Assembly: GCA_963725665.1 (NCBI GenBank)
Contig: CAVRZA010000011.1
Location: 64,001-128,000, forward strand
From: an uncultured Actinomycetes bacterium
Lineage (GTDB): Bacteria > Actinomycetota > Thermoleophilia > UBA2241
Length of the DNA: 64,000 nucleotides
Direction of reading: 5' to 3'
The notes beneath the pieces are model-generated. The model did not search any database and was not told the DNA's origin. It worked only from the letters and a program-made list of their open reading frames with translations. Of the stretch, positions 1,980 to 38,937 are shown piece by piece. The position numbers and the translations under genes were made by a program. Numbering within the stretch: position 1 is the stretch's first letter; every line of letters begins with the position of its first letter.

Positions 1980-3572
1980 GTGCACGACGATGCCCTCATC
2001 CTCGCCCTCGACCAGGGCACGACGAGCTCCCGCACCTTGCTCATCGACCGGCGCGGGTCGGCGCTGGCGAGCGCGCAGCGCGAGGTTGCGCCGCACTTCC
2101 CGCGCCCGGGGTGGGTGGAGCAGGACCCGCTCGAGATCTGGCGGTCGCAGGCCGGGACGGCGCGCGAGGTGCTCGCACAGGCGGGCACCGATCCGCGCCG
2201 TCTCACGATCGCCATCGCCAACCAACGCGAGACGACCATCGTCTGGGAGCGCGCGACCTCGCGCCCCGTGGCGCCGGCGATAGTCTGGCAGGACAGGCGC
2301 ACCGCCGCCGACTGCGAGCGCCTGCGGGACGAAGGACGTGAGGAGCTCTTCACGGCCAAGACCGGGCTCGTCTTGGACCCCTACTTCTCGGGCACCAAGC
2401 TGCGTTGGATCCTGCGGAACGCGCCGGGCGCGCTCGAGCGCGCCCGGCGCGGCGAGCTCGCCTTCGGCACCGTCGAGAGCTGGCTCACCTGGCTTCTCAG
2501 CGGAGGACGCGTGCACGTGACCGACGCCACGAACGCCTCGCGCACCCTGCTCTACGACCTCGACGCGGGCGACTGGGACGACGAGCTGCTGGAGCTGCTC
2601 GAGATCCCTCGCGCCGTCCTCCCGCGGGTCGTCGACTCGAGCGGGGTCGTGGGCGAGACCGTACCCGGATGGGGACCGGCCGAATGGCACGAGACGGCGC
2701 CCGCGGCGGGACCGGCCGACCCGCGCGACCCCGGGCTTCCGGGCGGCCTGCCGATCGCCGGCCTCGCCGGCGACCAGCAGGCCGCTTTGTTCGGCCAGGC
2801 CTGCCTCAAAGAGGGCATGGCCAAGGTGACCTACGGCACCGGCTGCTTTCTCCTCGCCCACACCGGCGGCCGCCGCGTCGCCTCGCGCGAGCGTCTGCTT
2901 ACGACCGTCGCCTGCCAGCGCGGCGGCCGGCGCACCTACGCGCTCGAGGGCAGCGTCTTCGTCGGCGGCGCCGTCGTGCAGTGGCTGCGCGACGGGCTCC
3001 ACCTGGGCGCCTCGTCAAAGGAGGTCGCCGGGCTTGCCGCCACCGCCGAATCGAACGAGGGCGTCTGCTTCGTGCCCGCCCTCGCCGGCCTGGGAGCACC
3101 CTACTGGGACCCGGAGGCGCGCGGCGCCATTCTCGGCCTGACGCGCGGCTCGACCGCCGCGCACATCGCGCGCGCCGCCCTCGAAGGCATCGCCTTCCAG
3201 GTCGCCGACCTCGTGGCCTGCGCCGAGAGCGATATGGGCAGGCGCTTGTCAGAGGTGCGCGTCGACGGCGGGGCGAGCGCCAACGACCAGCTTATGCAGT
3301 TCCAGGCCGACGTGCTCGGCGTGCCGGTGGTGCGGCCGGTCGTCCTGGAGTCGACCGCCCTCGGCGCCGCCTACCTGGCCGGCCTCACGGTCGGCCTTTG
3401 GCGCGACGAGGACGACGTGGCCGCCCTCTGGCGGGCACAGCGCCGCTTCGAGCCCCGCGACGGCATCGACCGTGAGGCCCTCCTCGCTTCGTGGCACAAA
3501 GCCGTCGAGGCGACCCGCGCCTTCGGCTCCGGGGCGGGCGAAGCCGCGGAGCCTCCCGGAGGCGCCGCATGA
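1980..3572 (+). CDS. glpK: Glycerol kinase
   Basis: [50 protein letters not shown] motifs; TGcTATCGT -10 box 7 nt before GTG. Confidence 0.95.
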
Positions 3573-31865: not shown

Positions 31866-33059
31866 TCAGCGGAACGACTCCACCCTGTTCTTGCCGAGCC
31901 GCTTGGCCAGGTAGAGCGCCTTGTCGGCGGCCGCCACCAGGCCCTCTCCGTCGTCTGCGTCCCCCGGCCACGTCGCCACTCCGACGCTGATCGTCACCCG
32001 CATCGGACGGCCTCCCGGTCTGCTTGCGAAGGCCGCACTCTCGACGTAACGGCGTATGCGCTCTCCGACCAGCCTGGCGACATCGGCGCCCCGGGCCGTG
32101 GCGTCCCGCGGAGCGGCGGGGGTCTCCCGCGCGCCGGCCGGCGAGGCTTCTCGAGAGGGTCCGTCACCGGGGTCGATCCCGTGGCGAGTGACGACCTTGC
32201 GCGCGCGACGGCCGCCGCCGGCCGGCGCGCAGACCGTGGGCGTATTGGGAAGCAGGATGGCGAACTCCTCACCGCCGTAGCGGGCGGCGAGGTCCACGTC
32301 GCGGCGGACCTCCTGCAGGAGGACCCGGCTGATCTCGCACAGCACCTCATCTCCGATGGGGCGGCCGTGGCGGTCGTTCAGCAGCTTGAAGTCGTCGAGG
32401 TCGAGCATGAGGAGCGAGAGGGGGATGCGGTAGCGCACGGAGCGTCTGAACTCCTGGCGCAGGCGCTCGTAGAAGTAGCGGCAGTTGTAGAGTCCGGTGA
32501 GGTCGTCGGTGATGGCCTGGCGCTCGATCCTCTCATGAAGGCGAGCGTTCTCGAGAGCCACCGCCGCCTGGGTCGCCAGGATCCACACCAGCTCGATCTC
32601 GTCGGCGCCCAGCTCGGCGCCGTCGCGGCAGCGGATGTCGATGAAACCGCCCGACTCGCTCTCGCGCGCGATAGGTGCGACTACGCGCGCCGATCGCCCG
32701 CGGCGGCGCTGCACTGGGAGGCGGGCCGAGGTCGCCTCGCGCGCCAGCGCGTCGGCCTCGGCCCGCCTCCCCGACCGTCGCGTGCGGCGCCCCGTGGCGC
32801 GGACGACGCTGAAGCCGCCCTCACCGTCGGGTATCCACACCTCGACGCTGCTCGCGCGGCCGCACAGGAGGCCCCTGGCCTCGACCGCCACGCGCGCGGC
32901 CACGTCACCGACCTCGATCTCCGCGGCGATGCCTCGGCTCGCGGCGAGCAGGGAATCCAAACGTTGCCCGACAGCGGCGCCGACCTCCTCGACGGCGAGT
33001 GTCGAGGCGGCCGCGGCGGCGGTCTCCCGGAGGTTGTCCCGATCGGTTGTCTTCGCCAT
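31866..33059 (-). CDS. GAF-like + GGDEF diguanylate cyclase
   Basis: DDLTGLYN, DLDDFK, RDVD I-site, RYGGEEF, ADKALY.AK..GKNRV. Confidence 0.85.
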   Translation of the reverse strand: MAKTTDRDNLRETAAAAASTLAVEEVGAAVGQRLDSLLAASRGIAAEIEVGDVAARVAVEARGLLCGRASSVEVWIPDGEGGFSVVRATGRRTRRSGRRAEADALAREATSARLPVQRRRGRSARVVAPIARESESGGFIDIRCRDGAELGADEIELVWILATQAAVALENARLHERIERQAITDDLTGLYNCRYFYERLRQEFRRSVRYRIPLSLLMLDLDDFKLLNDRHGRPIGDEVLCEISRVLLQEVRRDVDLAARYGGEEFAILLPNTPTVCAPAGGGRRARKVVTRHGIDPGDGPSREASPAGARETPAAPRDATARGADVARLVGERIRRYVESAAFASRPGGRPMRVTISVGVATWPGDADDGEGLVAAADKALYLAKRLGKNRVESFR

Positions 33060-33218
33060 TGGCGGGCCCCGCGGTCGTGAAGCGGGTCTCTCCGGGTCCG
33101 TATCGGCTGCCCGGAGGCGCTGCTGTAGCCTTTCCAGGGGACGCAACGGGCGTTCCGGCGCCGGCGGAGCTAAAGTCGGGCGCCGTCGGCGCCGATAACC
33201 GACCTGGTACCCCCTTTG

Positions 33219-33273
33219 GGGGCGAGGCTCGCCGGGCCGCCTGACAAGGCGTCTCGGCGAGCCTCGCCCCTTT
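33219..33273. promoter_or_regulatory. Long GC-rich hairpin in the divergent intergenic region upstream of the DGC cluster
   Basis: Perfect 16-bp IR GGGGCGAGGCTCGCCG/CGGCGAGCCTCGCCCC plus inner CGCCT/AGGCG; TTT follows on the + strand. Confidence 0.5.
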
Positions 33274-33382
33274 CCTGCATCCACTTATTCGTAGCTCCGC
33301 TTGTCAACGCCGCGCGCTGGCGGGCCTTCCCGGCTTCTGCTACATTCGTCGTTGTGATGGGGAGGGGGCTCTAGGAGGGTTC

Positions 33383-34963: not shown

Positions 34964-35115
34964 GCCGTCCTCTTCTTCTTTCAACGTCTCGTCTCCTCGT
35001 GTTGACGGGCCTTCGCGCCTTGGCCCATTATGCCCGCAAAGTAGTCGATCACCGCGGCCGGCGCGCAACTCCCGCCCAGCGCTGCGGCGGACGCGCTCTG
35101 CGAAAGGGGCTCGAC

Positions 35116-35334
35116 GTGTGCAGCTTTCCCCATATCGCCGAACGGGCGCAGCACTTGAGCGCCCTCACGGCACCGCTGGCGGCCGAGGAGGCGGTCGAGC
35201 TCCTTTGCAGCGACTGCCCCTTCTACCATCCCGACCGCGAAGAGCAGCTCGAATGCGGCAGCTTTCTCATCCTCAAGCGGCTGCTCGAGCGCGGGGCGCT
35301 CACGCCGGCGCAGATCGTCGCCGCGTGCCGCTGA
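35116..35334 (+). CDS. Small Cys-containing protein upstream of the radical SAM gene
   Basis: AAAGGGG SD + GTG; CSDCPFY....E.LECG motif; ends 31 nt before the rSAM start. Confidence 0.7.
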   Translation: MCSFPHIAERAQHLSALTAPLAAEEAVELLCSDCPFYHPDREEQLECGSFLILKRLLERGALTPAQIVAACR

Positions 35335-35365
35335 CGCGCCCGGGTACCCCGCCGCGCTCAACGAC

Positions 35366-36571
35366 GTGGACTCCAGCGCGACCATCCCACCGGCGCCCGA
35401 TCCGACCGTCTACCTCTCTCCCGACGCGTCGCTGAAGCGGCTCGAGGCGCCGTACCTCTACCACCGCGGCAAGGACGACCTCTACGAGCTGACTGCAGAG
35501 GCGTTCGCGTTCATCGAGCGCCATCGCGGCCGCCTCCCCTCACGAGAGACCGAGCCGGAGTTCCTCGCGACCTGCCTCGACGAGGATCTCCTTACGTGGC
35601 GCGAGCCGTCCTCCGGGCCGGAGCTTCGGGTGGCATCGGGAGAGCGACCGTCGCTGCGCTACCTGCTGGTGCACCTCACGGGTCGCTGCAACCTGCGCTG
35701 CGCGCACTGCTACGCCTCGGAAGCTGGGGAGGACGACCTGCCCTTCGATGCCGTATGGCACGCGTTCGCGGAGTTCGAGGAGGGCGGCGGCCTGCGGCTC
35801 CTGCTCTCCGGAGGGGAACCTCTGCTCCATCCGGACTTCTCGCGCATCGACGAGTTGCTGCCCGGCCTGAACGTGCGCACCGTGCTGCTTACCAACGGCA
35901 CCCTCCTCACCTCAGCCCGCGCGCGGCGCCTGCACGTGCATGAGGTGCAGGTCAGCCTCGACGGCATGGAGGAGAGCCACGACGCGCTGCGTGGTCCCGG
36001 GTCCTTCGCCCGCGCACGACGGGGCCTCGAGGCGGCCCGCGAGGCCGGTCTGCAGATCAGCGTCGCCTCGACGGTGAACGCTCTCAACCTGCGCGACTTC
36101 GACCGTCTCGCGGCTCTCGTCGAGGCCCTCGACGTCTGGCAGTGGACGATCGATGTGCCGTGTTCGGCCGGACGCATGGCGCAGCGGCCGCGACTCGAGG
36201 CGCCACCGGCCGAAGCGGCCAAGGTCCTCGAGCGCGGCTTCGCCTCGGGCACGCACGGAGACACGTTCGACTACCTCTGCGGCGCCCACCTCGCCGCGAT
36301 CATGCCCGACGGTAGGGTCGGCAAGTGCGGGCTTCTTCCCGATGAAGGAGGCGGACGCCTCGACGACGGCCTCGCGGTCGCGTGGCGACGCATACCCCAC
36401 CGCACGACCGGCTCGCTCGGGGAGATCTGTCGCTCGTGCCGCATCCTCGAGGACTGCCACGGCGGCTGCCGCTTCAGGGCTGGAGGCGCCCAATCACTTG
36501 CACCCGACGTCATACAGTGCTATCGGTATGGAGTCCTGGAAGCAACCGGGAGGAGGTGGTGCCGTTCATGA
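35366..36571 (+). CDS. Radical SAM/SPASM-domain protein, putative peptide maturase
   Basis: CNLRCAHC, SGGEPLLHP, QVSLDG..H..RG; SPASM C..C..CRSC.....CHGGCR..C; ~80-aa RRE-like N-terminus. Confidence 0.9.
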   Translation: MDSSATIPPAPDPTVYLSPDASLKRLEAPYLYHRGKDDLYELTAEAFAFIERHRGRLPSRETEPEFLATCLDEDLLTWREPSSGPELRVASGERPSLRYLLVHLTGRCNLRCAHCYASEAGEDDLPFDAVWHAFAEFEEGGGLRLLLSGGEPLLHPDFSRIDELLPGLNVRTVLLTNGTLLTSARARRLHVHEVQVSLDGMEESHDALRGPGSFARARRGLEAAREAGLQISVASTVNALNLRDFDRLAALVEALDVWQWTIDVPCSAGRMAQRPRLEAPPAEAAKVLERGFASGTHGDTFDYLCGAHLAAIMPDGRVGKCGLLPDEGGGRLDDGLAVAWRRIPHRTTGSLGEICRSCRILEDCHGGCRFRAGGAQSLAPDVIQCYRYGVLEATGRRWCRS

Positions 36572-36633
36572 AGATCAAGAAGGTGGCCCGAGGAAAGGCG
36601 GCGCTGCACTGCAAGTGCAGCTCGAGCTGCTGA
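36568..36633 (+). CDS. Putative RiPP precursor peptide MKIKKVARGKAALHCKCSSSC (21 aa)
   Basis: AGGAGGTG SD at 36551-36558, ATGA overlap with the rSAM stop, basic leader + Cys/Ser core, terminator downstream. Confidence 0.75.
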   Translation: MKIKKVARGKAALHCKCSSSC

Positions 36634-36675
36634 ACCAGCTCTGAACGGAAGCCGCTTCCTCACAGGCGACTTTCG

Positions 36676-36715
36676 AGGGGCGGGGGTGTGCGGACAAGGC
36701 ACCCCCGCCCCTTTT
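36676..36715 (+). terminator. Intrinsic terminator of the rSAM-peptide cassette
   Basis: AGGGGCGGGGGTG..CACCCCCGCCCCT 13-bp stem ending in a TTTT run. Confidence 0.8.
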
Positions 36716-36898
36716 GTCTCGTGTCGAGCGCCCACTGCTGGTGTCGCTGGTTCGGCAAGGCGCCGGATTGCGAACCGCGCGCGTCTCGGCGCGGCCGGCG
36801 CGCTGCCGAGGCGTCGGCCCGCGCCGACACGCGCGCCGACGCATGAGGCGCCGAGTGGCGATAGGATGACCGCGACGATCAACGAGAAGGGGGAGACG

Positions 36899-38493: not shown

Positions 38494-38937
38494 TCACCCC
38501 CAGATCGCCCGCGCGTCCGCAAGCACGCGCGCCGCGTGTCCCTTCGCCTTGACTTTGTCGTAGACCTTGCGCACGGTGCCGTCGGCGTCGATCAAGAAGG
38601 TCGAGCGCTTCGCGCTGCCCACCAGACCGCCGACCTCGAAGGCCCGCGTGACCTCGCGATCGGGGTCACTTACGAGCGGAAAGCCCAAGCCGTACTTGCC
38701 GGCGAAGCGCTCGTTGGCGGCCGGCTTGTCGACGCTGGCTCCCACCACCTGCAAGCCCAACGCCGCGAACTCGCCCAGGAGGCCGTTGAACTCAACGGCT
38801 TCCGTCGTTCACCCCGGGGTGGAGGCCTTGGGGTAGAAGTAGAGCACCGTCGGCTTGCCGGGCGCCCCCAGGTCGATGATCGTGCCGTCGTAGGCGGCTG
38901 CCCTCACCGAAGGCGCCTTGTCCCCAGCCTGTATCAC
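38494..38937 (-). CDS. bcp: Selenocysteine-containing BCP/PrxQ peroxiredoxin (copy 1; U43)
   Basis: GGAGGAGG SD; YFYPKASTPG-UGA(38811-38809)-TTEA continues in frame into GASVD..FPLVSD..RSTFLID; SECIS-like hairpin. Confidence 0.9.
38778..38803 (-). promoter_or_regulatory. SECIS-like hairpin of bcp copy 1
   Basis: GGA-A-GCCGUUG-AGUU-CAACGGC-C-UCC; loop begins 16 nt after UGA. Confidence 0.75.

Follow-up and report, generated by a model that had tools for sequence, protein, structure and literature searches.

We analyzed a 64,000-nucleotide stretch of DNA (the window; positions 64,001 to 128,000 of contig CAVRZA010000011.1, assembly GCA_963725665.1) from an uncultured Actinomycetes bacterium of the Thermoleophilia, and found in it a translationally coupled operon that ends in a gene for a 21-amino-acid peptide, MKIKKVARGKAALHCKCSSSC. 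The cassette spans positions 35002-36719 of the forward strand and consists of a promoter-like site, a 72-amino-acid open reading frame (ORF), a gene for a 401-amino-acid radical S-adenosylmethionine (SAM) enzyme of the SPASM type, the 21-codon ORF, and a hairpin followed by a U-run. [quoted passage not shown] Since the same trio recurs across anaerobic bacteria and archaea by the hundreds, it is probably an undescribed peptide-modification system.

The peptide gene was followed through 85 loci, 80 from a scan of one genome per species and 5 from relatives of the window genome. A peptide with the pattern M-x-I-[KR]-K-[V]-x-[KR]-...-C-K-C-x-x-S-C-stop was found within 3 kb of the enzyme gene in 65 of these loci, which belong to Actinomycetota, Desulfobacterota, Nitrospirota, Chloroflexota, and Methanoperedens-type archaea; the commonest arrangement among the 85 loci has the peptide gene directly downstream of the enzyme gene. 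The peptide is exactly 20 amino acids long in 62 of the 65 ORFs, the exceptions being the peptides of the window and of one relative (G008), both of 21 amino acids, and one archaeal copy that has 27 from its assigned start codon. Most of the 65 ORFs have a GGAGG-type Shine-Dalgarno (SD) sequence, commonly GGAGGTG, in the 20 nucleotides upstream, which in many Desulfobacterota is written in the codons for the C-terminal Lys-Gly-Gly of the enzyme, and the gap between enzyme and peptide genes is about 0 to 100 nucleotides in most loci. Across 61 distinct DNA sequences of the peptide gene, I3, K5, C14, K15, C16, and C20 are invariant, with both synonymous codons used for each, while position 19 is Ser in 57, Cys in 3, and Ala in 1. 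All three stop codons are used among these sequences, the GC content of the loci ranges from 33 to 71%, and the last seven codons contain 4845 synonymous and 2242 non-synonymous differences. By these comparisons, the peptide is the product of a real gene. It is unannotated, in that seven of seven exact look-ups gave no match in a collection of 15 billion proteins, and it matches no NCBIfam family (at E values up to 1) and no Pfam model. An earlier note, made from the letters of the window alone, had proposed HCKCSSSC as the core of the peptide; the CKCxxSC part of this core is conserved, but the His is not, and the length of 21 amino acids is a lineage variant of a family whose norm is 20.

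We also found that the peptide is strictly coupled to the SPASM radical SAM enzyme at the level of whole genomes. When the window genome was compared with 40 relatives, a true orthologue of the enzyme was present in 5 of the 41 genomes (E ≤ 5e-92; the next best match had 7e-26). A 24-nucleotide pattern for the peptide core occurs in 4 of them; all 4 carry the orthologous enzyme, and every match sits at the enzyme locus. The pattern is absent from all 36 genomes of this set that lack an enzyme orthologue, and its single match in the whole window genome is the peptide itself. Among genomes that have the enzyme but no adjacent peptide, a canonical peptide was found elsewhere in 10 of 10 tested. 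Five of these are Methanoperedens-type genomes (G041-G045), which hold one to three unlinked copies each (loci L106, L108, L110, L112, L113, L114, L118, and L121) that end in CKCHSSC plus one residue, this residue being Ala in 5 of 8 copies and Thr or Ile in the others. The other five are bacterial, with one canonical unlinked peptide each, and a reversed control gave 0. Thus, the conserved small ORF that the earlier note expected beside homologous enzymes was found at 65 of the 85 loci and, as unlinked copies, in every exception tested. The peptide is usually single-copy per genome. One locus (L048) has a tandem duplication of the cassette, with identical peptides encoded at 1758-1820 and 3201-3263, separated by about 1.4 kb that contain a second radical SAM paralogue. 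The enzyme itself is widespread, with a relative in at least 448 species-level genomes of the one-genome-per-species scan; its 120 best homologues are 42 to 93% identical and mostly 380 to 400 amino acids long. Among the lineages with the system are Syntrophia-type Desulfobacterota, Thermodesulfovibrionales-type Nitrospirota, Dehalococcoidia, Thermoleophilia-type Actinomycetota, and Methanoperedens.

In the window, the elements that the earlier note had read from the sequence are all in place: three co-oriented ORFs closed by a terminator, a 72-amino-acid CSDCPFY...ECG protein, a CNLRCAHC enzyme with a full set of SPASM cysteines, and a peptide, not called as a gene, with its SD in the 3' end of the enzyme gene and an ATGA overlap. 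Their positions are as follows.

35002-35031, forward strand: promoter-like site TTGACG, 18-nucleotide spacer, CATTAT, upstream of the cassette (consensus match only)
35116-35334, forward strand: 72-amino-acid three-cysteine protein, start GTG at 35116, stop at 35332-35334, CSDCPFY...LECG (homologue lengths, AF2 model)
35366-36571, forward strand: radical SAM/SPASM enzyme, 401 amino acids (PF04055 match, invariant Cys set, AF2 model)
35366-35650, forward strand: N-terminal domain of the enzyme, residues 1-95, resembling a RiPP recognition element (RRE) and a candidate leader-binding domain (model topology, weak PqqD profile match)
35687-35710, forward strand: CX3CX2C radical SAM cluster motif CNLRCAHC, with C108, C112, and C115 (sequence, alignment)
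36278-36520, forward strand: SPASM region with seven invariant cysteines, C305, C321, C355, C358, C364, C368, and C385 (alignment)
36548-36559, forward strand: Shine-Dalgarno sequence of the peptide gene, GGGAGGAGGTGG, within the final codons of the enzyme gene (sequence)
36568-36633, forward strand: 21-amino-acid peptide, start ATG at 36568, stop TGA at 36631-36633 (conservation in relatives)
36568-36609 and 36610-36630, forward strand: basic leader and CKCSSSC core of the peptide (conservation)
36675-36719, forward strand: intrinsic-terminator-like hairpin, GC-rich stem at about 36675-36713, then UUUUGU (folding energy against shuffles)

The promoter-like site is the one found in this region, where 0.0 were expected (consensus scan, 50 shuffles). 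Although the frame of the 72-amino-acid ORF is already open from 34999, the GTG at 35116 has an AAAGGGG motif 6 nucleotides 5' of it, and this start is supported by homologues, 9 of 20 listed being exactly 72 amino acids long and several starting at the equivalent residue. A gap of 31 nucleotides separates this ORF from the radical SAM gene. At the other junction, the SD core AGGAGGTG lies at 36551-36558, 9 nucleotides before the peptide ATG, which shares the sequence ATGA with the TGA of the enzyme gene. The hairpin has a predicted folding free energy of -40.9 kcal/mol (z = -5.47), and 0 of 200 shuffles were equally stable; the consensus terminator scan did not flag it because its 9-nucleotide loop falls outside the scan rule. 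Rfam and tRNA scans of the window gave no match near the cassette.

The enzyme matches the radical SAM family PF04055 with 67.7 bits, against a cut-off of 29.5. The three cysteines of its cluster motif and the seven of its SPASM region are invariant in an alignment of 56 homologues, and the SPASM spacing C-x15-C (with G-x4-C) ... CxxCx5Cx3C ... C can be read in the enzyme sequence. In an AF2 model (predicted local distance difference test [pLDDT] 89.6, predicted template-modeling score 0.90), the best structural matches are SkfB (Z 26.4), SuiB (Z 25.0), anSME (Z 23.4), CteB (Z 22.8-23.0), ChlB (Z 22.0), and PqqE (Z 20.8); over the radical SAM core, the model matches anSME, viperin, and MoaA at Z 19-23, and over its C-terminal region it aligns with SkfB, SuiB, and anSME, which are SPASM enzymes. 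SkfB is also the best PDB match by sequence (E 6.5e-23). Judged by its model, the enzyme belongs to the fold class of the peptide maturases. No NCBIfam family reaches its cut-off for the enzyme, the best scores being those of AhbD (95.6 against 500) and ScmE (94 against 400), with further scores below the cut-off for NirJ, StsB (80 against 625), MftC (75.7 against 265), and PqqE (59 against 381), and a search of the ESM Atlas returned solely unnamed or generic radical SAM clusters. Because no NCBIfam model comes near its cut-off, we place the enzyme, on its sequence, in a separate SPASM clade without a curated name. These NCBIfam and Pfam searches gave no characterized family that matches, and the earlier note had likewise recognized none for the peptide.

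About 95 residues precede the radical SAM core. In the AF2 model, they form four short strands, followed by helices at residues 44-52 and 64-72. Residues 14 to 390 of the model superpose on residues 1 to 439 of the SuiB chain (root mean square deviation 4.0, 353 residues aligned, 16% identity), an alignment that covers the N-terminal peptide-binding domain of SuiB, because it starts at chain residue 1. An hhalign comparison of this N-terminal domain with PqqD proteins of related genomes gave a probability of 34.7% (E 4e-4), a weak match that is topologically sensible and lacks the middle helix of PqqD. We therefore call the domain RRE-like, and propose that it may bind the leader. As to the PqqD-like RRE of the earlier note, the strand-then-helix topology of residues 14-72 and the SuiB alignment from model residue 14 speak for it, but its sequence support is weak, with no Pfam PqqD match. 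We considered whether the small three-cysteine protein supplies the RRE helix that is missing from the enzyme, and dropped this idea, as hhalign gave 0.4% for the small protein against the N-terminal domain and 1.2% against PqqD.

The small protein was found in 66 of the 85 loci with jackhmmer and in 67 with a profile run on stop-to-stop frames. In its alignment, C31, C34, F36, and C47 are invariant and L45 and E46 nearly so. It occurs in three arrangements: a single-domain form directly upstream of the enzyme gene and co-oriented with it, with the peptide downstream (35 loci); a tandem duplicate that, in Nitrospirota, is encoded on the divergent strand (11 loci); and a tandem duplicate fused to the N terminus of the enzyme, in which case the peptide gene is upstream (5 of 85 loci: L055, L061, L064, L071, and L073). 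The AF2 model is all-helical (pLDDT 90.2). A Foldseek search of the PDB with this model gave no match at E ≤ 0.001, and in a wide structure search with VIA-align the best match had Z 3.1, which does not by itself prove the fold new. With the sequence profile of the small protein, nothing in the PDB fell below E 0.046, and the protein has no Pfam domain and no NCBIfam family. A profile search of 1.84 billion representatives found 171 clusters at E ≤ 0.001, most of them 50 to 90 amino acids (single domain) or 110 to 145 amino acids (tandem) in length; at least one listed match is a false positive, namely, P0231, a CAP-repeat protein of 1225 amino acids. A predicted complex of enzyme and small protein scored 0.00 against a mark of 0.32 and was used neither for nor against an interaction. 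The fusion in 5 loci is the strongest evidence that the small protein functions as part of the enzyme, and from the sequences we take it to be an accessory and not the substrate; the earlier note had also proposed an accessory or metal-binding partner. With three invariant cysteines, it may hold a metal or Fe-S site that would be completed by a fourth ligand or a partner. In a frame of 474 amino acids (L070:1367-2794, reverse strand; also in L093 and P0221), the tandem three-cysteine domains are joined with a response-regulator receiver, a PAS domain, and a truncated HisKA_3 domain; this is either a genuine sensor fusion or a pair of genes that share a frame.

Taken together, these features suggest the following scheme. 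The 21-amino-acid peptide (20 amino acids in nearly all relatives) would be the substrate, and its basic N-terminal half, M-x-I-K/R-K-V-x-K-K, would serve as a very short leader that docks on the RRE-like domain. The C-K-C-x-x-S-C tail would then be presented to the radical SAM site and two auxiliary [4Fe-4S] clusters, where abstraction of a hydrogen atom would be followed by formation of at least one Cys-derived thioether, of the sactionine or ranthionine type, within the seven-residue tail, giving a small, rigid, and still basic product. The 72-amino-acid helical protein would act as an accessory module that probably binds a metal or Fe-S cluster and aids substrate handling or electron supply. 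Of the parts of this scheme, the one we hold most firmly is that the peptide is the substrate of the enzyme, which the comparative data make very probable. Thioether formation is more tentative, and by analogy with known enzymes we put it at slightly below an even chance; we favor it because of the three invariant cysteines in seven residues, the seven-Cys SPASM region, and the best matches, which are sactisynthases. In CteB, the seven-Cys SPASM domain leaves an open cluster site that binds a substrate Cys. C14, C16, and C20 are candidate sulfur donors, and the tolerance of Ser, Cys, or Ala at position 19 is compatible with an alpha-carbon thioether acceptor there. Thioether chemistry and an intracellular product, both put forward in the earlier note, are inferences.

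Several observations weigh against a three-gene operon for leader-guided thioether formation. The enzyme has no match to the Pfam SPASM family PF13186 at E values up to 1, and it is about equally distant, at roughly 60 to 95 bits, from the models for sactisynthases, PqqE, AhbD/NirJ, and anSME. None of 10 N-terminal domains matched Pfam PqqD at E values up to 10, the window locus likewise went unmatched in a genome-wide search, and the leader, at about 13 residues, falls short of the usual length in RRE-dependent systems. The small protein was not found within 3 kb in 18 of the 85 loci. The bare 24-nucleotide core pattern has 4 forward matches and 5 reversed-control matches in the 41 genomes; because the reversed control is no rarer, the coupling signal lies in the location of the matches and the full-length peptide and not in the pattern count. 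One assembly (G002, 74% complete, probably the genome of locus L021; enzyme at L002) has the enzyme, an orthologue with 58% identity, and neither peptide nor small protein at the locus or in the assembly, which also lacks the core pattern; this enzyme may be a decaying or repurposed copy. Since the archaeal copies carry a residue beyond the last Cys, a free C-terminal Cys is not required. No RNA sequencing runs are listed as containing the cassette stretch, and the DNA runs all contain small shares of it (≤0.15). Finally, the sequence and model evidence does not distinguish thioether formation from other radical chemistry.

The last point bears on the strongest alternative, in which the same three components carry out a radical chemistry that forms no thioether, and the tail becomes a peptide-derived cofactor or metallophore like pyrroloquinoline quinone (PQQ) or mycofactocin. 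Among the candidate reactions are an oxidation that turns Ser19 or a Cys into a formylglycine-type aldehyde (as by anSME), a crosslink at Lys15, epimerization, and thiooxazole-type heterocyclization. Besides the three invariant cysteines, K15 does not vary, and 57 of 61 sequences have S19; PqqA is about as short and conserved as the precursor found here; and anSME and PqqE superpose on the enzyme model nearly as well as the sactisynthases do (Z 23.4 and 20.8). An ATP-grasp-like gene in 18 of the 85 loci suggests further tailoring in one clade, and neither an exporter nor a protease recurs, which also fits this alternative. However, the peptide has no aromatic residue and no Glu-Tyr or Val-Tyr pair of the sort found in known peptide-derived cofactors, downstream processing enzymes do not recur across the 85 loci, and the scores for PqqE and MftC lie far below their cut-offs. 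Three cysteines in seven residues together with a seven-Cys SPASM region are the usual setting for thioethers. We regard a non-thioether outcome of this kind as rather improbable.

A second alternative, which we consider quite unlikely, is that the peptide is not a substrate at all and acts unmodified, as a mini-metallothionein-like, cluster-binding, or regulatory partner, while the true substrate is the 72-amino-acid protein or a small molecule. Basic tails rich in CxC can bind metals as they are, Methanoperedens-type genomes encode the peptide away from the enzyme and in as many as three copies, and the best NCBIfam scores are to the cofactor-modifying enzymes AhbD, AhbC, and NirJ; the reported CrpC/CrpA pair of Methanococcus voltae (PMC13692751) offers a precedent for a protein substrate. 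In contrast, the SD inside the enzyme codons, the ATGA coupling, and the short gaps in most loci tie the peptide to the enzyme, as does their strict co-occurrence among genomes. The RRE-like N-terminal domain resembles that of peptide maturases, and the 72-amino-acid protein is fused with the enzyme in 5 loci, as accessory domains typically are and substrates seldom are. A strictly coupled peptide that is not a substrate would itself be unusual. As for the 21-codon ORF being a chance frame, it is very short, was missed by gene callers, and lies in high-GC DNA that is rich in spurious ORFs, but conservation across phyla and two domains of life with synonymous variation, the fixed length of 20 amino acids, the conserved SD, and the use of three stop codons refute this possibility, whose chance we consider practically nil.

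If the peptide is matured as proposed, the role of its product is, on balance, more probably physiological than antibiotic. We favor a physiological product (metal-binding, redox, or cofactor-like) because the peptide is near-invariant in two domains of life, has no export genes with it, and occurs as unlinked copies in archaea. A housekeeping molecule of anaerobes is likewise likelier than an antibiotic, because the peptide is usually single-copy and no protease, exporter, or immunity gene recurs. That it is the precursor of an unrecognized cross-domain cofactor or metal-handling molecule of strict anaerobes, a third example after PQQ and mycofactocin, produced by a new clade of SPASM radical SAM enzymes with the help of a new three-cysteine helical metal-binding domain, is possible but doubtful.

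The system can be compared with four that are known. Like the sactipeptide and ranthipeptide systems (SkfB/SkfA, CteB/SCIFF, and PapB), it has a SPASM radical SAM enzyme with a putative N-terminal peptide-binding domain and an adjacent short Cys-rich precursor. In contrast to them, the precursor here is just 20 amino acids long, about 13 of them leader and 7 core, and is nearly invariant across phyla, unlike the variable precursors of bacteriocin type; transporter, protease, and immunity genes are absent, and the three-cysteine helical protein, which matches no known fold, is an additional partner. None of the NCBIfam models for sactipeptides, SCIFF, or ranthipeptides attains its cut-off, so that both precursor and maturase fall outside the curated SCIFF/ranthipeptide (TIGR03973-type) models. 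With the PQQ (PqqA/PqqD/PqqE) and mycofactocin (MftA/MftB/MftC) systems it shares a very short conserved precursor, a SPASM enzyme, a small companion, a wide but patchy distribution, the absence of export genes, and the structural match to PqqE. However, the companion is not PqqD-like (1.2% in hhalign), the RRE-like part being inside the enzyme, and the core consists of Cys, Lys, and Ser, without conserved peptidase or oxidase genes nearby; with PqqE and MftC scores below the cut-off and no PqqD- or MftB-type companion, it does not match either family. The enzyme model superposes end to end on SuiB, across the RRE, radical SAM, and SPASM architecture of the latter, whereas the streptide chemistry of SuiB/SuiA makes a Lys-Trp carbon-carbon bond and the peptide here has no aromatic residue in its core. 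CrpC/CrpA, as described in 2026 (PMC13692751), likewise comes from an anaerobe and pairs a SPASM radical SAM enzyme, which has a predicted RRE and makes thioethers, with a ribosomal substrate rich in Cys; that substrate is a large protein, in contrast to a 20-amino-acid peptide here, the gene cluster is a different one, and the link extends only to the shared superfamily. The literature searched contains no description of the enzyme, the small protein, or the peptide family. A survey of about 15,000 RiPP radical SAM proteins (PMC10288494) has neither these taxa nor a Cys-tail family in its main text, and its supplementary tables might list the clade. We regard the precursor family and the accessory domain as new, the enzyme class and the logic of the system as known, and the product as probably new.

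Clustering of the ORFs around the 85 loci found no protease, exporter, or immunity gene that recurs, in keeping with the earlier note, which had seen neither protease nor exporter beside the cassette. The sole recurrent extra neighbor is the ATP-grasp-like gene, which in 18 of the 85 loci, those of Syntrophia-type Desulfobacterota, comes directly after the gene for the peptide and which is absent from the window. Its product (e.g., L023:4410-5324, about 304 amino acids; in L038 the gene directly follows that of the enzyme) matches PF02655 with 28.5 bits against a cut-off of 23.2, has an N terminus that resembles the C-terminal motif of TTL-type ligases, and may add a further modification in this clade. 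Some loci contain extra radical SAM paralogues. In Desulfobacterota loci (L032, L033, and others), genes for NifU/IscU-like proteins (7 loci) and NifS-like cysteine desulfurases (5 loci) lie upstream on the opposite strand, which may reflect synteny of the clade and not a functional link. In the window, the genes that flank the cassette are unrelated to it, namely, a divergent DUF1385 gene on the 5' side and an unassigned 108-amino-acid ORF and an HD/OB-fold protein on the 3' side; the wider context contains ordinary genes such as a GGDEF diguanylate cyclase (31866-33284, reverse strand) and a fragment of an AhpC/TSA peroxiredoxin (38494-38760, reverse strand). Elsewhere in the window genome, at G000:C6:564158-566067, there is a second, separate RiPP-like pair, in which a PqqD-family ORF (58.9 bits) precedes a different radical SAM gene by about 1.2 kb.

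With three small genes and a core of seven residues, the system is tractable, and both the chemistry of a new SPASM clade and the putative metal site of a new three-cysteine domain could be defined in it. A sequence of 20 residues that is nearly invariant from bacteria to archaea points to a conserved physiological product and not to a fast-evolving antibiotic. The hosts are mostly uncultured anaerobes of the subsurface and of sediments, organisms with few known cofactors or metal-handling molecules dedicated to them; if the product were such a molecule, it would have been overlooked because its precursor gene is too short for every gene caller.

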